DNA from: Okamejei kenojei
Taxonomy: Eukaryota
Length of the DNA stretch: 64,000 nt
Assembly: GCA_035221665.1 (NCBI GenBank)
Contig: CM069155.1
Location: forward strand, 29,326,001-29,390,000
Direction: 5' to 3'
The notes beneath the pieces are model-generated. The model was not told the DNA's origin. It worked only from the letters and a program-made list of their open reading frames with translations, and ran no database searches. Position numbers and translations under genes: made by a program. This document shows positions 6,672 through 61,300 of the stretch, piece after piece (positions within the stretch are counted from its first letter, which is position 1; each line of letters starts with the position of its first letter).

Positions 6672-6998
6672 TCACATACAGCTGGATTTCGCGATATCCA
6701 CCCGAATTGGTTTGCCTGAGTCTCGTGTTTAACCACAACAGGAGTAACAGCTCGTGTAATTTCAGTCTAGAGACTGGTAGAGTCAGGTAACTGCTCGCAC
6801 TGACGTGTTGTCCGTCTCCTGCTGGATCCGGCTGGTCTCAATGCCCATCACTTCTCGCACTGCCGTCCACAGTCCACTGAATTTCCACAGCACCCGGATT
6901 AAACCCGCTCACCAAACACACCAGGTGGACGGTGCCCTTTTTTACTCTCAACTCATCTGCTGAAGGTGGTAAAACGGATGCGGCAGGGGGACGAGGAT
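6672..6998 (-). pseudogene. IgL constant exon, cluster 1 (frameshifted as assembled)
   Basis: Acceptor aaacccag. Pieced translation: NPRPPAASVLPPSADE..TLVCLVSGFNPGAVEIQWTVDGSARSDGIETSRIQQETDNT..SSYLTL..VVKHETQAN..SSCM*. Multiple 1-bp indels, so either a pseudogene or sequencing noise. Confidence 0.85.
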
Positions 6999-8932
6999 CT
7001 GGGTTTAAAGAAGATCGCAGCTAAATAATAATTGAAGCACTACTTTCGGATCAAAGGTCAATGTAATAACCAATGTAATATCCTTTACGTCCACCGCGGC
7101 TTCAATAATAATACATTCACATCGTGTATCTAGCTACTGAAATATAATTTACAATGAGGATTTCGGGATAAATCAACATTACCCTTAATAAAATCTCAGT
7201 AATAGGTAGGAGGATCTGCAGATGCTGGTTTATTACCGAAGATAGACAAAATGCTGAGTAACACTCAGCGGGACAGGCATCAGAACTAGCTCTCGACTCG
7301 AAACGTCACTCATTCCTTCCCTCCGGAGATGCGGATTTATTCTCTGGGTCCACTGCTGATTTACTCCGGCATTTGTGTCTATCTTCGTCTAATTAAATTC
7401 ATTTTGCTTCATTCGAGACAAGAAAGGGATTGATCTCGATTTGTCCGTTGCCCTCTCAGGCAAAGGTGGATTGTGTATTTATTAGGCCGTTTGAGGAAAA
7501 ACGGGGCGGTCGGGTCCGTGCCAACTCGTAGCAGTTAATTCAGTCATACTGCCCCTCCATTCTATTCTATCTTCGGTATGAACTTCCTCGCCATTTATTT
7601 GACTGCAGTCTAGCTACTTCTCTCAACACCTCTTCTTACGACAGTTTGCTGCAGTAAGAGATTACTTAGAGTTGCCTATTAGCCTACATCATGTCTTGGA
7701 GCAGTGCAAGGAAATTGATTTGTGACGAAATAACTTGCAAAACCCAACATACAGTACCCTAGAGGGGATTGAACGCGGTCGCAAATATTGGAGCTGTGGA
7801 CGTAGCCTGCTGCAACCGGTTATACCAGTGATCTGTGCAGATGTTGTACACATTTTAAAGAGCTGCTATAATCTTAGTTATATCTAACCTCATTCATCTC
7901 TCGACGTGTTGCTCCATCTTAAACTATCTGACGTTTTTTGAAAGGGAACTGCTTCTTTTCATTGTCTGAATAGGGAAACAGTTCGGGGCAGCATATATCA
8001 ACCAGATATTAGTACAGAACTACTATTAGCAACGCAACATATTTAATGTTTGCAGATGCGCATGATCACAATTGCAAGGGTAAATTGCCCTTTACTGTTT
8101 TCATGTCAGAAGACCACCAGATCTTTTTCCCCTGGCCGAAGATTTGAGAAGACATTTGAAGCTAAATATATAACAGTTGATTTTTTAAATTTACAAGGTG
8201 ATGCAGTGATCTTTTCATAGCTCACAGAGAGATTAGATGGTTCAGATTAAATCATAAATTTCAGATATTTGAGAAAAAAACTTTCAATAGTCGTCGTAGC
8301 AGAAATAAAACCCTTTCTGATCAACAAAGAAAACCCTTGTATATACTAGAAACCAGATATTAAAAACTGAAAACGCTGGGGTTACCAAACGAATAGGCAG
8401 CTTCAGGGGAGATAAAACAGTTAACAAAATAACAGGCTAGCTCTGACGTGTTGGAGCTGAAACAATATGCTTGTTCCGCTCTCCGCAAATAATGAATTTT
8501 AATTGTGTGAAATGCGAGCACTCGATTGTCCTGGTCAGCTCCAGTGGTTCATTCCTTCAACCAAACGTTTCCTCTCAATGCGCAGATTGACTGATGGGTG
8601 TATATGCTATGTTACCAGGGTCGTCAAGAGCAGTCAGTTTCCATTCCAATTGGACTTTTTAAAAAAACGACCAGCTAGTCATCTGGGGTATTTGTGGGAC
8701 GGGTGATGGTGACTACAACCCGTATAATGTGACTGGCTTCAAAGAGTCTTGTCAAAATCATCAGTTTTTACTGGGGCGCATGCTCTCCGTAATTAGGTAA
8801 AATAATTATGTTTGTTCGGCAATGTCAACCCGATAATAAAGGGTTGCAACTGGCTTTGTTCGATTGAACTTGTACGAGAAAATATTGTGCTGAAAATAAA
8901 CTCGGTTCAACAATGACACGCATGACACTAAA

Positions 8933-8963
<31 letters not shown>

Positions 8964-9187
8964 AGCAAATGCAATCTATCTCAGGACCACTAATGAGTTT
9001 TGCATCTGGACAGAATACAATATTCTGAGGGGGGAAGTGGTAAGGAGGGGTGGGAGCTTACAATAGAAGTACACAAGTAAACATATGAAGGATATCATCG
9101 ATATTCTCAAAAAACCCTTGAAAGATAACGCAATTAATTATTGTTAATAAGAACTTACAGAACGTTAGAAAGAAATATTTTACTTAC

Positions 9188-9536
9188 TGCCAACAGCCAC
9201 TCGTGTTCCTTTTGCAAATCTTAAAAAGTTTTTCCACATAGCGCAGTAAACATCGGCAGCGTCGTCTGATTGAACGTTAGATAGTGTGAAAGTCCCCGTG
9301 TTGCCTGACACTGATCCGGAAAACCTCTCTGAAAACTCCCGGACCTCGACCAGGAGTGTCCTTGCTGGACCAATAATAGACTAAAACCGCGGAGTACGTC
9401 CCAGGGAATCTGCTGATACCAGTAAACATTGTCATTCCCTAAAGTAGCGCCGGACATGGTGCATGTTATTTCTAAATCTGCCCCGGAGTGATGGACATCG
9501 AAAGCGGCTGGCTCACTGTAACTTCTGCGCGTAAAT
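9188..9536 (-). pseudogene. Germline-joined VJ exon, IgL cluster 1 (three 1-bp indels)
   Basis: Reads (Y)LRAEVTVSQPLSMSITPGQ/LEITCTMSGATLGNDNVYWYQQIP/..VYYWSSKDTPGRGPGV/ERFSGSVSGNTGTFTLSNVQSDDAADVYCAMWKNFLRFAKGTRVAVG. Acceptor ccag and donor gtaagt (9182-9187). No RSS between V and J. Confidence 0.88.
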
Positions 9537-18303: not shown

Positions 18304-18589
18304 TCAAATAAAATGGATCGTGATGTTTTACGTAATGGGATTTGCCTTTAGTCTCGTATTTAACCACTCAGGAGGAAAGCGTGTGTAGTTTCCAATCTGA
18401 GGCTGGCAGAGGGCTGCCCGTCTCCTGCTGGACCCGGTTGGTCTCAACGCCATTCCTTCTCGCAGTTTTGTCTGCAGTTCACTCAATGTTTACACCCCGC
18501 GAATTAAGCCCGCTTACCGAACACACCAGGGTAGCGGGTCCATTTACCGTGACTTCGTTCGGCGAAGGTGGCAGAACCGACCTTAGGAT
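18304..18589 (-). pseudogene. Degenerate IgL constant pseudo-exon (psi-C a)
   Basis: Acceptor ataaccag. Reads ..SVLPPSPNEVTVNGPATLVCSVSGLNSRGVNIE*TADKTARRNGVETNRVQQET..ASDWKLHTLSS*VVKYET.., with in-frame stops and deletions. Confidence 0.85.
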
Positions 18590-26272: not shown

Positions 26273-26278
26273 TTTATT
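26273..26278 (-). terminator. PolyA signal, IgL cluster 2
   Basis: AATAAA on the minus strand about 265 nt after the stop. Conserved in cluster 3 (42098-42103). Confidence 0.75.
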
Positions 26279-26542: not shown

Positions 26543-26865
26543 TCAGATACAGCTGGATCTCACGATATTTGTCTTAAGTGGGTTTGCCTGAGTCTGGTGT
26601 TTAACCACACAGGAGTAAAGCTCGTGTAAGTTCCAGTCTGAGGCTGTCAGAGTCAGGTAACTGCTGAGACTAAACGTGTTGTCCTTATCCTGCTGGATCG
26701 GGCTGGTCTCAACGCCGCTATTTTTTGCACCGCCGTCGACTGTCCACTCAACGACCACCGAGCCCGGGTTAAAGCCGTTCACCAAACAAACCAGGGTGGC
26801 GGTGCCCTTTGAGGTAACTTCATCAGCGGAAGGCGGGAGAACCGTCACTATAGGTGCCCGAGGAC
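26543..26865 (-). CDS. IGLC: Ig light chain constant exon (lambda/type II-like), cluster 2, intact
   Basis: Acceptor ttcaacag, phase 1. Reads GPRAPIVTVLPPSADEVTSKGTATLVCLVNGFNPGSVVVEWTVDG..FSLSSYLTLTASDWNLHELYSCVVKHQTQANPLKTNIVRSSCI*. Has the C1-set Cys/Trp/Cys and a penultimate interchain Cys. Confidence 0.96.
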
Positions 26866-27706
26866 CTGTTGAACAAGAAGTCACGTTTAATTGGAGAATT
26901 GCCAACGTCGAGATATCACATTTCAGAAAATGCATCCCATTAGAGCACTCATTTATTCATTTGTAGAAAATCGTTTTATTCTCGACCTATTTCAAACAAT
27001 TGTGTGTGTTTGTTAAAATCGGATAAACAATGAGTAAACAACGTGAAAGGAACTGGGATAGATGCTGTCTGTCCTATCCATAAACAACAGGGAAGCAACT
27101 GTGATATATCATGGCTGTAAAGTTTTATAAAATCGAACACATTAATATAACTTTATAAAAGTGATTTTCACTACACGTCTCCATGTCAGTCTATTTAAAT
27201 GTAACAAACGTAACTAATTTACTTCGCGGAATTTACAGATTAACAGATTGAAACTTATTTGATAGTGTGCACCCATTGAGATAGAGGGTGAAGTTATTTA
27301 AGTACCGCAGGAATATAAGGAAAATATTCTCCGAACCGCCATGGTCACCGATTCGCAGATTTCGATTTCATTATAGTTCGAATGTTAATTTATATTTGAA
27401 ATGTATTGCTGTGTTCATCAAACCTTGTTACACGCATTAAACAAAAGTAACCTATTTCCTGAGGGAAATGTGCAAAACGTTCTCTTTTCACATTTTCGGG
27501 TGAAACGATATACCCGTTAGACATGTCAACCAGAATTTCGGCAAAGTTGAATGTCAACGTTGCTGATCCCCGTTAACCAAGCAATTTACTTTCACATCTG
27601 GACAATTATTCTCCTGAGTTGAAAATTTCGCTGCGAATATTTCTGCAAATTATTTAACAAACCGCATTTTATGCAACGATAGTTGGGGGCACTTCAATTC
27701 CACGCT

Positions 27707-27832
27707 AATCCTTATATACAGGTCTGAAGAAGGGTTTCGGCCCGAAACGTTGCCTATCTCCTTCGCTCCTTAGATGCTGCTGCACCCGCTGAGTTTATCC
27801 AGGTCTTTGAGTACCCCCAATCCTTATATACA
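27707..27832 (+). mobile_element. 98-bp short element with a 14-bp TSD, beginning with a hammerhead-like motif
   Basis: AATCCTTATATACA occurs at 27707-27720 and 27819-27832. The element is absent from the paralogous intron of cluster 4 (about 57200-57250). Confidence 0.88.
27720..27755 (+). ncRNA. Minimal type-I hammerhead ribozyme-like motif
   Basis: AGGU-CUGAAGA-A-GGGU(UUCG)GCCC-GAAA-CG-UU-GCCU: catalytic core, stem II, 4-bp stem I and a palindromic ACGU in place of stem III. Activity is not shown. Confidence 0.6.
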
Positions 27833-28514
27833 TGACTACTTCAAAATCCCGAAAAGGTGCCAGTAATTCGCATTGGGAAACACGCGATAATTATTGGGCG
27901 GGAATGAAAAATTGGAGGGTCGCCTCACATTTTCGAGAACATTAAAGTTCTTAAAGTGCGGCCTAAATAATTTGGTAAATTGTGAACTGTAAACACACAT
28001 AAAGCTGGGAATCACAGGTTCACGATTTCTACTCTACTATGGAGGGCGTATGGCCCGAGCGAGTCTTGTTCGGGTCCTGAATAACTTGAATGGCTTTGAG
28101 ATAGAAATGTGGCTCTCATCTGCGAAAACAATTACATAAATTATTTTCGTGATTCAACTAAAGTGTAAAGAGATTCAGAGTGAAACACTTGTTTCAATAT
28201 CAAACAAAACACCGTAGAACAAATTATTCTCTCGCATCCCTGCACCGTGCGGTCGGATATCAATGCGTTTAAAAGATGGAAAGTAGCTGCAGTGCCAAAT
28301 GATTTAATAAATAATAAATAAAGAAATAATTAAGTCGATAAAGTCCATGTGTTCATTCGCGCGCTCAGTTGAGAAATTGATTTTTAGCTCACTTTTCGAG
28401 TTATTTTACCGAACTATGACCAAGTGAGCTCGGAGCGTGAACGTCTGTAAAGCAGGAATCTATACACTGCACCAACTACATCGAAATAAACCTTGCAAAA
28501 TCAAGTATAATTTG

Positions 28515-28760
28515 AAGATAGGCACAAAACGCTGGAGTAACTTAGCGGATCTCTGAAGAAAAAGAATAGGCGACGTTTCGGGTCGAGACCCTTCTTCAGA
28601 CTGAGAGTCAGGGGAAAGGGACGCGAGAGATATAGACGGTGTAGAGAGATAAAGAAAAATGATAGAGAGATATGCAAACAAGTAACGATGATAAAGGAAA
28701 TAGGCCATGGATAACCGTGGGCTCGGTGAAAACGAGTTATAGACAATGCAACTCACCAGG
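28515..28760 (-). mobile_element. SINE-like repeat in the J-C intron, with a hammerhead-like core on the gene's sense strand (28568-28602)
   Basis: Minus strand AGT-CTGAAGA-A-GGGTC(TC)GACCC-GAAA-CG-TC-GCCT. Same family as the copies near 11810, 14090, 19400, 24350, 24910, 35245, 41040 and 54435. Confidence 0.75.
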
Positions 28761-28964
28761 AAAACATTGAATCTATTACAACGACTAACTTCAAAGTTAC
28801 TTGAAGTTAAATCAATAGTCATACAGCTGGATTGTAAAGTGGCCAAATGAAATATGAGCTGATGTACCTCGAATTTGCATGAATTATGACGTTAATTCAA
28901 CAAACATTTTGTTTATATTTACAAAATATTCCATGGCGCAATTCAAATAATATATTCCACTTAC

Positions 28965-29306
28965 CACCAATACCCAGCCTCGTTCCTTTACCAAAATGTA
29001 AACCACTATCCCATTTTGCACAGTAATAGTCTGCAGCATCATCCGCCTGAACGTTAGATATTGCGAATGTTGCAGCGTTGCCTGACATTGAGACGGAGAA
29101 ACGGTCTGGAATGTCCGTGCCTTTATAAATGCTGCCGGAAGAATAATAGAATAAATACTTTGGAGTTTTGCCAGGGATCTGTTGGTACCAGGAGACATAG
29201 TTACCGCCTGAACTGGAGCCCGATATGGTGCAGGATATTTGTATGTTCTGCCCCGTAGAGGTGGACATCGAAGGCGGTTGACTTATTGTAATTGCCGCGT
29301 CTACAT
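28965..29306 (-). CDS. IGLV: Germline-joined VJ exon, Ig light chain cluster 2, intact
   Basis: 342-nt phase1-phase1 exon (ttctcag ... gtaagt). Reads (Y)VDAAITISQPPSMSTSTGQNIQISCTISGSSSGGNYVSWYQQIPGKTPKYLFYYSSGSIYKGTDIPDRFSVSMSGNAATFAISNVQADDAADYYCAKWDSGLHFGKGTRLGIG. V-set C, WYQQ and DYYC run directly into the J motif FGKGT. Confidence 0.96.
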
Positions 29307-29426
29307 CTGAGAAAAGATCAAGATCAGAAAAATATAAAATCATTAGGATAGTTGAAGTGCGGGAAAAGATCACAATTTAATGGTGCACGGCAATAAATCT
29401 ATTGCCCGGGGAAGTATAATACTCAC

Positions 29427-29475
29427 AAACTGCGCATAACACCAGAGCACCAACCACACAGATCCAGCAAGCCAT
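29427..29475 (-). CDS. IgL leader exon, cluster 2 (MACWICVVGALVLCAV)
   Basis: ATG at 29475 and gtgagt donor at 29421-29426. The 120-nt intron splices in frame to the VJ exon. Confidence 0.9.
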
Positions 29476-29551
29476 TTTAATTAAGCGACTGAACTCCGAT
29501 AGGGCGTCAGTTTCCTGATTAAGTGGCGTCTAAACTTGCTCAAGGGCTCGC

Positions 29552-29633
29552 TTTATAAATGGAATGACGAGTTCGCACCGTGTGTTTATCAATGCAAACC
29601 AATCAAACCAGAATGCTCGTCGAAGCCAATCAG
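29552..29633 (-). promoter_or_regulatory. IgL promoter, cluster 2: TATA, variant octamer, two CCAAT boxes
   Basis: TATAAA (29552-29557), GTTTGCAT 7/8 octamer (29592-29599), CCAATC (29599-29604) and AGCCAATCAG (29624-29633). Confidence 0.75.
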
Positions 29634-29895
29634 AAATTGCCAGATCCTTCCTTCCTCGAAATATTCCGCCACTGTGAAGCATAACCTGATGCGTTCTCAT
29701 ACATATCGTGGAATAAAAGGGATTGGTGCAGTAGCCCCTTCCCGATAATAAACAATCTATCCATTTTTGTATGATCCCTAAGCAAAAATATAATGAAGAG
29801 ATTATCTGAGAGTATTCAATCTTATATTCTGAAACTCTTTAATCGGCAATGGACACGGAAGCGAAACGGTCCAATTAAAACAATATAACGCTTTT

Positions 29896-34028: not shown

Positions 34029-34262
34029 ACCAAATAAAATGGATCGCAATTTGATACTCAATGGGATTTAAGTCAACCAGACAGGAGTAAAGCGTGTGTA
34101 GTTTCCAGTCTGAGGCTGGCAGAGGGTTACCCGTCCCCTTCAGGACCCGGTTGGTCTCAACGCCATTCCTTCTCGCAGTTTTGTCTGCAGTCCATTAAAC
34201 CCGCTCACCGAACAAACCAGCGTGACTTCGCTCGGCGAAGGTGGCAGAACCGACCCAAGGAT
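34029..34262 (-). pseudogene. Degenerate IgL constant pseudo-exon (psi-C b)
   Basis: Paralog of 18304-18589 with further internal deletions and the same ataaccag acceptor. Confidence 0.8.
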
Positions 34263-42744: not shown

Positions 42745-43064
42745 TCAGATACAGCTGGATCTCACGATATTTGTCTTAAGTGGGTTTGCCTGAGTCTGGT
42801 GTTTAACCACACAGGAGTAAAGCTCGTGTAAGTTCCAGTCTGAGGCTGTCAGAGTCAGGTAACTGCTGAGACTGAACATGTCCTTATCCTGCTGGATCGG
42901 GCTGGTCTCAACGCCGCTATTTTTTGCACCGCCGTCGACTGTCCACTCAACGACCACCGAGCCCGGGTTAAAGCCGTTCACCAAACAAACCAGGGTGGCG
43001 GTGCCCTTTGAGGTAACTTCATCAGCGGAATGCGGAAGAACCGTCACGATCGGTGCCCGAGGAT
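42745..43064 (-). pseudogene. Orphan IgL constant exon, cluster 3 (open frame, no VJ or leader)
   Basis: DPRAPIVTVLPHSADEV..QQDKDMFSLSSY..RSSCI*. Nearly identical to C2 apart from a one-codon deletion and P to H. Homology to the cluster-2 intron stops at about 43153. Confidence 0.9.
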
Positions 43065-56080: not shown

Positions 56081-56404
56081 TCAGATACAGCTGGATCTCA
56101 TGATAGTTGTCTTCAGGCGGTTTGACTGAGTTGGTTGTTTAACCACACAGGAGTAAAGATCGTGTAGTTCCAGTCTGAGGCTGTCAAGAGTCTGGTAACT
56201 GCTGAGAATGAACGTTGTTGTCCTTATCCTGTGGATCGGGTGGTCTCCACTCCGCACTATTTTTTGGCACCGCCGCTCGACGCTCCACTCAACGGCACCG
56301 AGCCCGGATTAAAGCCGTTCACAAACCACACCAAGGTGGCGGTGCGTTGAGGTATAACTCATCGGCTGAAGGAGGGAGGACCGTTCACGATCGGTGCCGA
56401 GGAT
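56081..56404 (-). pseudogene. IgL constant exon, cluster 4 (many 1-bp indels as assembled)
   Basis: Aligns to C2 and C3 throughout (ttaaccacacaggagtaaag; gttccagtctgaggctgtca; ttaaagccgttcac). Acceptor aaacag, ends SSCI*. Confidence 0.88.
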
Positions 56405-57629
56405 CTGTTTAATAAGAAGGTCCACATTTAATTGGGAGAATGTTGTCGTTGAGATATCATTATTTGCCGAAAAATACATCTCATTAAAAAATCATTTTAT
56501 TCATTTGTAGAAAATAAGTCGTTTATTCTCTGACCTATTTCCAACCTCATTATGGTGTGGGTTTTTTTTACTTGTGTGAACAATAAATAAAGTACGTGAA
56601 AGCTACTAGAATAGATCCTGTCTACCCTATGCATAAACTCCGGTAAAGCTTATATGATAGATCATGGCGCACTAGTTTATAAATACGAATTACATTATTA
56701 CAACTTTTTATAATGTTCAATTTTACTACACATTTTACTTTTACATTTATATAAATATATTCAGCAGTTAAAACGATTTCGCGTCGCCGGGAACATATAA
56801 TAACAGATTTAAACGTATATAATTGTCGGAACCCTTTGAGATGGAGGGTGGCGCTATTTAAATTCGGCAAAATTATATAGAAACTTTTCTGCTAAGCCGG
56901 TTGTCGATTGGCAGATGTCGTTCAAAGCAAGGATGGCATTGTAGTGATCATTTAAATTGAAATGCATTGTTGCGTCCACGAAAGGCAGCTATAGTATAAA
57001 CAAAAGTTCTGGAACAAAATTGTGCGAAGTTCATTTCTTTCGCATTTCGCATTTTGATATCCTTGTTCAAACCCGTCAACGGAATTTATGACAGTGTTGA
57101 ATATTATCGTTGCTGAACCCCGTACCCAAGCCATATTTCCTTTCATATCTGCACAATCACTGCGAATAATCGACAATTTATTGGGACGACCCAATTCCAT
57201 GCAACTTCAGTTTACATCAACCCTCTTCCTAATTGACTATATTCAAAAATCCGAGAGAAATTTCACCATTCGCAAGGTAGTACGCAGATATTATGAGACG
57301 GTAAAAAATAGAAAATTGAAGAATTATGCTTCACATTTTCGGTACATTAAATCATGGTGCGTGACCTAAGTAATTCTGTGAACTGTAAAACAATATTTTA
57401 TTTGGAATCACAAGCTGCGAATTGCTAATATAATAGGTGGACGCTGTAAGGGTTAGTTTCTTGCTCGTGTCATGTTGTTATGAAATGCTTAGAAGGCGGA
57501 ATATGGCTCTGATCAGTGCAACAATTAATAAATTTTTTCGTCGCTTATTATATACATTATTTTCTAACAATATCTGCATTGAAATAAAAAGAAAACAGCG
57601 CGCTAATCCGATGATATATGTTACTTTAC

Positions 57630-57978
57630 CGCCAATACCAGCCTCGTTCCTTTACCGAAAATGTTAACCACTATCCATTGGCCCAGTAATAATCAGCAGC
57701 ATCCAACCGATGAACGCTAGATATTGCGAATATTAGAAAGAGTTGCCGGACACCGAGACGGAGAAAAAAAAAAACGGTCTCTGGAAAGGTCCGTGCCTTT
57801 ATAATTGTGCTGGAATAATACCAGAATAGATATTTGGGTGTTTGCCAGGAATCTGTTGGTACCACGCGACATCGTTAGCGCCTTGAACTGGAACCGATAT
57901 GGTGCAGGATTTTGTATGTTCTGTCCAGTAGAGGTGGACATCGAAGGCGCTGACTTACTGTAACTGCCGCGCTTAAGT
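57630..57978 (-). pseudogene. Germline-joined VJ exon, cluster 4 (paralog of VJ2, frameshifted as assembled)
   Basis: Fragments LSAAVTVSQ, MSTSTGQNIQ, TPKYLFWYYSST and DAADYY. The junction tggatagtggtt-acattt-ggtaaaggaacgaggctg matches VJ2. Confidence 0.88.
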
Positions 57979-58106
57979 CTGAGATAAGAGAAATATCAGA
58001 GTAAAAAATGAAAATTGTTAGTTTGTTGTAAAGTGTGTGAGTGATAACCCCAAATTGATGGTGCACAGAAATAAGTATAATGTCTAGGAAAATGTTAAAT
58101 ACTCAC

Positions 58107-58315: not shown

Positions 58316-61300
58316 AAATTGTCAGATTATTCCTCAAAATATTCGCCACTGTGAAAATGCAGGTCCTTATTTTAGAGATTTGTATTTCTAAAAAGCTTCA
58401 TGTATTCTAATACATTCATCAGAATTACAAGGATTGCCACAGTTTCCCTTCTTTATTAACAAACAATCTATAATTTTTCAATATGACCCCACCGGTATAT
58501 ATATTAAACAAATTGTACTGCGAGTATTCACTGTTATATTTGGTAATGTTTTAATCACCATTGAAATGGGAATATAAATATTTTATCTAAAACGGTCCAA
58601 CTGAATCCGTATCGCTGACTACTAAAACTGATAACAGTCACTCCTGGCACTTTTTGTTTAATTATATATCACAATAAATCTAAATATCTTTGTAATTTTA
58701 AAAAATCGTAAATCACAGGCTGCTTCTACTTGTGTATCAGATAATTCAGAAAGAACCTGAGGGGACTGAACATCACTGCAATCTCAAGTAAAGTTGCAGT
58801 TTAGTTTTGGAGGCAATTTTGGACCACCCGATGTGTGTCGTGCTTGGGGAAAAGTTTTCATGTTGTAATGCGCTGTAATTCGCAAACCTTGCCACGACTC
58901 AAAAGTGGAAAGGTTACTGAACCAATATTAATGCATATTATGAGAGAGGAAAAGGGGTCACATTGACTCTTCACCGTCCACTTCCAGAGTTCTTTCGACT
59001 TTGTAGGTTACGCCAGGACGACAGGAATTTACACACAGCAATCCATATTCATTAAGTAGTTGAATAGAATAGGGAAACTCCTGCTATCTGGCAAAACTGA
59101 CAAGGGGAAAGGAAAAACACGAAGAGCGGTGTCGGGAAATAGGGGTGAGAAAAAGGTACTTATCAAACATTATTTGTCCTTAAATTGTCATTAAACTAAA
59201 TAAGTTTAGCTGTGAAATGGACTGGTCACCATCCATTAAACTTAACGTTCATCCTTTCACAACTACGTTTTCCCCATGAACTGCCTGGGATTTCCAGGAT
59301 AGCTCGGTTTCCTCCCACACTACAAAGACAGATTGGGAGGTTCATAGGTTTGTAATATTTTATTGTTCATAAAAGTGTTGTAGGATAATGTTAATGTGCG
59401 GGTACTGTTGATCAGGTGGTAGAGGATCTGTTTCCGCGCTGTATCTCCAAATTAAACTAAAGTGACTACAATGTGTATCATCTACAGAATGAGCTGCAAT
59501 TGGGCGCCTCCGTCACTGAAGTAGGCAGATCACTACGACTAGCAAGTTTACCTATTGTTTTTAAGTACAAGGTCCCTGCTCTCTCGTTCTCATAATTCTC
59601 TTATTGCTGCACGTTTTAAACTTTGCAACGTGCAATACCGTGAGAATATGAACACGCGAAACACCCAAATGCCGATCCGCAGATGCTACATGATCCGCCA
59701 TGGAGTCAAAGAGAGTCATAGAGTCATAGAGTGTGGAAACAGGCCCTTCACCCCAACTTTCCCACATCGGCCAAACGTTCCCATTCTACACAACGCCCAC
59801 CTGCCGTTTAGGTCCATATCCCTCCAAATCCGTCATATCAATTTACTTGCCTAACTGTTTTTTAAACGTTGGGATAGTCCCTGGCACAACTACCTCCTCT
59901 GGCTGCTTGTTCCATACATCCACCACCTCTGAGGGAAAAGGTTTACCGCTCAGATTCCTATTAAATCTTTGCCCCGTCACCATAAACCTGGACCTCGATT
60001 CACCTACTCTGGGCAAGGGGACCTGTCCATCTTACCCGATCTATTCATCTCACGTCCTCTATATACTTTTATAATATTTCCCCTCATCTTCCTGCTCTCC
60101 AAGTAATAGTGTCCCAGCCTTACTCAAACACCCCCACCCCCCCCCCCCCCCCCCCCCCTATACTCAAACTCTATACTCATTACTGTGGCTTGATGAAGCC
60201 AATGTGCCAAAAGCCTTTTTTGAGCACCCGCTCTAACCGTCGATGCCCAGGTCCTGCCTATGTTAGAATTCCCAAAAGCAAACATTTTACATTTTTCTGC
60301 ATTAATTCCATCAACCATTCCTGCCTACCTGGCCAATTGATCAAGAACCTGTGCACTTCTTCACAATCCTCTCCGATATCTGCAAAAACCTCCAAGTTTG
60401 TAATCATCGGAAAACTTGCTATCTTAACCAGCATGATCCCATTCAAAATCATTGATATTAGATGAATAAAACATTAACGGGCCCAGCAACAGAATCCTGA
60501 AGACACCCGGGTACCTAGCACTTTGTGTTTATCATGATTCCAGATCTGGGTTCTTGTGTCTCTGTGCCCCACTTTTGGATGGGCAATAAATACTACATTC
60601 CCAAAGACGGTTCATCCTACAAATGAATAACATTGGAAGATTTAGTATGGCAAATGAGATAGAAAACATAGAAAAATTCTATTTTCAGGAGGTGCAGGAG
60701 GAAGGCCATTTGGCCCTTCGAGCCTTGCACCGCTATTTCATTGTCATCATGGTGATATCCACAATCAGTAACCAGTGCATGGCCTTCTCCCCATATCCAT
60801 TGATTACGCTAGCCCCGAGAGGCTACTAACTTTTAAAATTAATCCCAGTGAATTGGCCTTTGCGGCCTTCTGTGGCAGAGTATTCACAAATTCACAAACT
60901 CTTGGGTGGAAAGTTTTTTCATCACAGNNNNNNNNNNNNNNNNNNNNNNNNNNNNNNNNNNNNNNNNNNNNNNNNNNNNNNNNNNNNNNNNNNNNNNNNN
61001 NNNNNNNNNNNNNNNNNNNNNNNNNNNNNNNNNNNNNNNNNNNNNNNNNNNNNNNNNNNNNNNNNNNNNNNNNNNNNNNNNNNNNNNNNNGTGGCCCCTG
61101 GTGCTGGGGATTGAACCTACGCTGCACTGCCTCAATGAGCATGGATTGTCCTTCTCCAAATTAGGGAGACCAAAACTGACACATCCTCGAGATGTGGTCT
61201 CACAGGGCCCTGTGGAAAACTGCAGAAGGACCTCTTTCCCCTCTACTCAAATCCTCTCGTATGAAGGGCAATGCCGTTAGCTTTCTTCACGGCCTGTTCC

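Follow-up and report, generated by a model that had tools for sequence, protein, structure and literature searches.

A germline-joined lambda (type II) light-chain minicluster of a second, long-CDR2 V family in the skate Okamejei kenojei

The window, a stretch of 64,000 nucleotides of Okamejei kenojei DNA (GCA_035221665.1, CM069155.1, positions 29,326,001 to 29,390,000), carries a light-chain minicluster on its minus strand. As judged from sequence, it is most probably an intact germline-joined lambda (type II) gene of a second V family with a long CDR2, encoding an ordinary light chain that would pair with IgM/IgW heavy chains without a RAG step. Germline joining is textbook knowledge for cartilaginous-fish lambda, and expressibility without RAG is already known for the lambda genes of these fish as a whole. 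The joining being already known, the points of interest are the V family, its spread among elasmobranchs and its promoter shift.

The spliced reading frame is open and in phase over 237 aa, all splice sites are canonical GT-AG sites of phase 1, and Pfam searches gave a V-set match in the VJ exon and a C1-set match in the C exon (Table 1). The V domain is predicted to adopt an Ig V fold (mean pLDDT 92.8, 12-row alignment), and the VH-contact residues and the C-terminal cysteine are retained. Among the best 60 of 1,572 matches in a PDB sequence search, only engineered or mammalian-type antibodies were obtained. The initial annotation had described all parts as intact, in phase and free of RSS, which held for anatomy, splicing and frame; the promoter, however, is intact only in part, its octamer being imperfect (GTTTGCAT). 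The short FR3 and long CDR2 noted there were borne out: CDR1 has 8 residues and CDR2-IMGT 6, and FR3 is two residues shorter than in classic type II V, whose two extra residues are missing.

Table 1. Features of the window gene (positions in the window)
Feature	Position	Strand	Remark
Inverted CCAAT box TCTGATTGG	29626..29634	-	Promoter element specific to the long-CDR2 family
Imperfect octamer GTTTGCAT	29592..29599	-	At -124
TGATAA GATA-type site	29591-29586	-	Directly after the imperfect octamer
TATA box	29552..29557	-	TATAAA at 29557
Leader exon, 49 nt	29427..29475	-	Phase 1, 16 codons + 1 nt; ATG at 29475
Leader-V intron, 120 nt	between leader exon and VJ exon	-	GT-AG
Fused V-J exon, 342 nt	28965..29306	-	Open, without RSS; long-CDR2 lambda V family
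CDR2, 6 residues	29128..29145	-	YSSGSI (CDR2-IMGT)
Germline CDR3, 8 residues	28996..29019	-	Old V-J join
J-C intron, 2,099 nt	26866..28964	-	GT-AG
C-lambda (type II) exon	26543..26865	-	Penultimate cysteine and stop
AATAAA polyadenylation signal	26273..26278	-	Outside the span of the initial annotation

A scan for RSSs gave no RSS-like pair in the gene and one weak hit in the whole window, at 60362; the scan works, since the RSSs of L080, a split IgM cluster, were detected with it. At each of the 30 chromosomal V loci fetched, V and J are joined, and J with its splice donor comes within 52-67 nt after the second cysteine. Lambda arrays were located on contig C25 at 29.3-29.9 Mb, which holds the window, and at 30.4-30.7 Mb, from 150 of 179 and 150 of 269 candidates scored, so that their counts are to be read as 'at least'. 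CDR3 length (8) is constant in 19/19 open paralogues on this chromosome. Leucoraja and Rhinoraja models share the identical 8-residue CDR3, from which that of Amblyraja departs by one residue. DNA contigs of another species span the join (run X10); in a second sample of the same species, the longest piece carried too little sequence on one flank of the join to be counted. A somatic join from lymphocyte DNA was ruled out, the join being common to paralogues and other species. Because all 30 loci are joined, the same CDR3 recurs in other skates and the join is bridged in another species, it is, on these sequence grounds, inherited and old. The germline status proposed in the initial annotation was thus supported, as was its statement that cluster 4 has the same join, though cluster 4 is full of 1-base indels.

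All light-chain genes of the assembly whose junction is readable have V and J joined (30 lambda, 2 sigma and 3 sigma-2; C25, C26, C28 and C581; L031-L065), which may be peculiar to this species or reflect a gap in the assembly. No perfect RSS was found on C25 or C26, and a perfect-RSS hit near a sigma locus was rejected, as it sits within a repeat. With a shark kappa query, no kappa was found in the assembly among the 150 of 354 candidates scored; the best matches, at 44-45%, were lambda C.

The window gene was matched by short-read contigs with 0-4 differences (run X1, possibly the source sample), and its counterpart in the main array is 88% identical. The region from 4.2 to 32 kb of the window is an inverted near-copy of C25:29.659-29.686 Mb, between two 500-N gaps, and belongs to a 58-kb contig (4242-62612) that is flanked by 500-N gaps and inverted relative to the main array. 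Relative to the main copy, the number of indels drops from 81 per 1.7 kb at the left end to 4-8 per 2 kb by 18-28 kb; because this gradient is a consensus-error pattern, the frameshifts seen in clusters 1 and 4 of the window may be artefacts. Copy counts are soft, since the 58-kb contig may represent a second haplotype of the main array. In clusters 1 (6675-9534) and 4 (56084-57990), joined genes of the long family are disrupted by 1-base indels. Cluster 1, a near-copy of the intact L048/L012 cluster, has kept a perfect octamer. Also observed in the window were an orphan C exon without V and with one codon deleted (42748-43062) and two decayed C exons (18347-18586 and 34048-34253).

Among the 30 fetched V loci, 9 belong to classic type II and 21 go with the window V. 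This second group combines a short FR3 with 6-7 residues in CDR2 and 8-9 in CDR3, and the mean identity of the V to classic type II is 49%. CDR lengths were surveyed in 180 parsed chondrichthyan lambda proteins (9 of 189 were skipped; near-duplicates are included). The 88 long-family proteins showed a CDR2 of 5-8 residues (7 in 67), a short FR3 throughout and a CDR3 of 8 or 9 residues in 87, versus a CDR2 of 2-4 residues, a long FR3 in 80 and a CDR3 of 5-13 residues in the 92 classic proteins. In a V tree of 79 rows, which lacks three rows (Squalus, lungfish and bichir kappa), the long family formed a clade with 99/97 support and the classic family one with 100/99; without the CDR2 columns, support for the long-family clade was still 100/98. 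Separate V and C phylogenies placed the V outside the classic type II clade and the C inside the type II clade. The strongly supported long-family clade sets the window V apart from classic type II, as a member of a second lambda V family. The window V lies on the kappa/lambda side of the V tree, apart from sigma and sigma-2 (99/89). A grouping of long and classic V as sisters had 36/77 support and was not rejected (p-AU 0.57 without CDR2 columns); they may be sisters, or one of them may be nearer to bony-vertebrate lambda V. The split between them predates the shark-ray divergence, because both families occur in sharks and rays, and most simply the long CDR2 would be the ancestral state.

A profile search with the window family gave 287 hits, of which 120 were listed, and family counts refer to these. 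The 47 top-scoring records represent 7 genera of batoids and 9 of sharks and carry automated names throughout; cloned cDNA names were not among them. The classic V query found cloned chains of sandbar shark, dogfish, elephant shark and ratfish. Ten clusters of the long family listed 60 members, and the 55 shown were XP_, GCC or GCB models. The literature searched, in the parts available, contained no account of a second lambda V family in elasmobranchs. The long-CDR2 family, its spread and its promoter shift appear under-described. As to the 'undescribed V family' of the initial annotation, a distinct lambda V family was confirmed, whereas its novelty is plausible but not proven, given RefSeq orthologues under the generic name 'lambda-1-like' and the old ratfish entry AAA59369.1.

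Sequence identity between the C region of the window gene and the C regions of classic-family genes on its chromosome is 64-72%, compared with 48-51% to sigma, 46-47% to sigma-2 and 44% to a shark kappa. In the C tree, in which one row (P0128) is a faulty gene model, the C regions of both V families fell into one chondrichthyan clade (93/91) including AAA59379, AAA86749 and AAA59371, so that the type II/lambda-like C first reported for this gene nests among type II C regions. In ratfish, Heterodontus, Carcharodon and Scyliorhinus, C regions paired by species and not by V family, which points to homogenisation of C exons while the V families persisted. Two further lambda-like chains with a divergent C, about 50% identical to type II, were also observed, one in basking and white shark and another in elephant shark (P0341/P0455; P0457-P0459); their C regions cluster with 99/83 support. 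No counterpart of the basking/white shark chain was found in this skate.

With its single V-J-C minicluster, joined and without RSS, and a C that groups with type II, the gene is placed in type II lambda; its V neither nests with classic V nor has the CDR2 of 2-4 residues or the long FR3 of that family. Its CDR lengths fall in the lambda range (CDR1 3-9, CDR2 3-7; PMC5985310). Membership in the lambda-2 isotype, which the initial annotation had considered, is extremely improbable. Its sole attraction is the unlikeness of the V to classic type II (the mean identity of 49%). Lambda-2 is defined by a CDR1 of 5-7 and a CDR2 of 2-3 residues, with none in cartilaginous fish (Guselnikov 2018, PMC5985310), against 8/6 here, and the window C is nested among the classic lambda C regions of its own chromosome, to which it is 64-72% identical. 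The protein searches returned no lambda-2 sequence, and this isotype is set apart by the stated CDR marks and by the position of the C. The modal CDR1/CDR2 lengths of the long family, 8/7, are those given for sigma-2 (type I) in PMC5985310, lengths that are not exclusive to sigma-2. Membership in sigma-2 was rejected, as the V is 30-35% and the C 46-47% identical and the trees place both elsewhere. Only 3 sigma-2 clusters were found in this assembly (L063-L065, L087-L089); for the little skate, PMC2192082 reports at least 89 type I clusters. An array at C8:21.7-23.1 Mb (L090-L096) comprises at least 15 VJ domains that are sigma-2-like, are encoded by single exons and have a CDR3 of 4 residues; one of them lies in a 1,888-codon open frame. 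In a third sigma cluster (L074, C28:18.034-18.040 Mb), V contains stops as well as an insertion.

In Ig promoters, the principal B-cell element is the octamer. A perfect octamer was found about 117-130 nt upstream of the ATG in 9/9 classic promoters and in 4/4 further classic clusters, that is, in 13/13 classic versus 1/21 long-family promoters. The inverted CCAAT box TCTGATTGG is present in 21/21 long-family and 0/9 classic promoters, and AGATAA occupies the usual place of the octamer in 16/21 of the former; the promoter copies are related and these counts reflect few events. The five long-family promoters without AGATAA are those keeping an octamer or near-octamer, the window gene included. 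This promoter split between the two lambda V families is new here. As the main Ig B-cell element is mostly lost, a different level or timing of expression is likely, and the long family is likely switched on differently from textbook lambda genes. The altered promoter could also account for the absence of the family from cDNA deposits.

Across related skate long-family paralogues, frameworks gave uncorrected pairwise pN/pS values of 0.40 and 0.51, against 1.40 and 0.83 for CDR1+2 (8 and 9 genes); six classic genes were too alike to read (framework pN/pS 1.14 on very few changes). AID hotspot motifs numbered 10-13 per 100 nt in CDRs versus 6-7 in frameworks, about 1.6-1.8-fold denser. The VJ exon is open in 19/21 long-family genes; a leader stop affects one gene and a broken C two. 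These data fit working antigen-binding chains that would be diversified by gene copy and hypermutation. For such an ordinary light chain, an old RAG join in germ cells would have fixed CDR3 at 8-9 residues, and the joined cluster would then have multiplied. Present diversity would come from copy differences in CDR1 and CDR2 together with AID hypermutation, and C exons may have been homogenised between neighbouring clusters within each lineage. Octamer loss in favour of CCAAT/GATA would probably have led to lower or differently timed expression.

The same promoter make-up could instead mark a specialised early or invariant-like chain, used in embryonic/neonatal B cells or in pre-B-like heavy-chain testing through a CCAAT/GATA promoter. 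Consistent with this are the octamer count (1/21 against 13/13), the GATA site in 16/21, missing solely from the five with octamer or near-octamer, the narrow CDR3 length range of the long family, its absence among the cDNA deposits listed and the resemblance, in the alignment, of its FR2-CDR2 to that of tetrapod long-CDR2 lambda/VpreB-type V. Germline-joined kappa and sigma-2 chains of the nurse shark are neonatal according to PMC2193156 and PMC5192425. About 19 open, varied V copies with raised CDR replacement change, however, suit antigen binding and not invariance, and a VpreB-like tail is missing, so that we hold a specialised early chain to be quite unlikely. That the long family is near-silent and decaying after octamer loss is very improbable: the octamer was lost and several copies are broken, with a stop in one leader and with damaged and orphan C exons, but the family has been kept in 16 genera with its frameworks under purifying selection, and many of the breaks follow assembly error at contig ends. 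A bolder interpretation, which we regard as unlikely, would see an ancient long-CDR2 lambda lineage, joined once before the chimaera-shark split and akin to the source of tetrapod long-CDR2 lambda/VpreB; its CCAAT/GATA promoter would denote a stage-specific, RAG-independent chain and the skate, without kappa, would have its whole light-chain repertoire without recombination.

To our knowledge, reviews treat cartilaginous-fish lambda as a single short-CDR2 V type. Most skate lambda genes here are of the second V family and combine a sigma-2-like loop geometry with a lambda C; isotype (C) and paratope shape (V) are therefore uncoupled. The question at stake is how a B cell picks one ready-made light chain when rearrangement cannot enforce exclusion, and two pre-joined families with opposite promoter make-up in one locus offer a direct test of light-chain choice per B cell.

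The closest named proteins are from skates. XP_032899425.1 (Amblyraja, 91% identical in V) and XP_055511140.1 (Leucoraja, 82%), annotated in RefSeq as 'immunoglobulin lambda-1 light chain-like', are direct orthologues with the same join; their names are automated and a family description was not found for them. Classic cartilaginous-fish lambda genes (nurse-shark NS3, little-skate AAA59379, sandbar-shark AAA86749, ratfish AAA59371) are likewise germline-joined V-J-C miniclusters, and those of O. kenojei lie in the same chromosome region, about 1 Mb away, with C regions in the same clade as that of the window gene. The window family differs from them in V (44-54% identical), in its J end, in a CDR2 of 6-7 against 2-4 residues, in an FR3 shorter by two residues, in a CDR3 of 8-9 against 5-13 residues and in the loss of most octamers. 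Six lambda loci have been attributed to the nurse shark; no nurse-shark sequence was among the matches found. Ratfish AAA59369.1 (Hydrolagus colliei) shares the CDR2 of 7 residues, the short FR3, the 8-residue CDR3, the type II C and a near-identical J end, but its V framework is 43-53% identical to the long family and it did not clearly group with that family in the tree, where a position within was not rejected (p-AU 0.32); its profile score of 114.9 is no higher than that of tetrapod long-CDR2 V. Its accession number belongs to a series of type II entries from ratfish and skate, so the 1994 study in which type II was defined is its probable source. The lambda-2 chain of ray-finned fish is also a light chain of the kappa/lambda group, but has short CDR1 and CDR2 and was not found in cartilaginous fish (PMC5985310). 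Among bony vertebrates, bowfin, amphibian and turtle have long-CDR2 lambda V, taken here as the IGLV4/5/VpreB type; these show a similar FR2-CDR2 pattern and length, but differ in a mostly long FR3, in split V and J and in having no tree support for orthology with the skate family.
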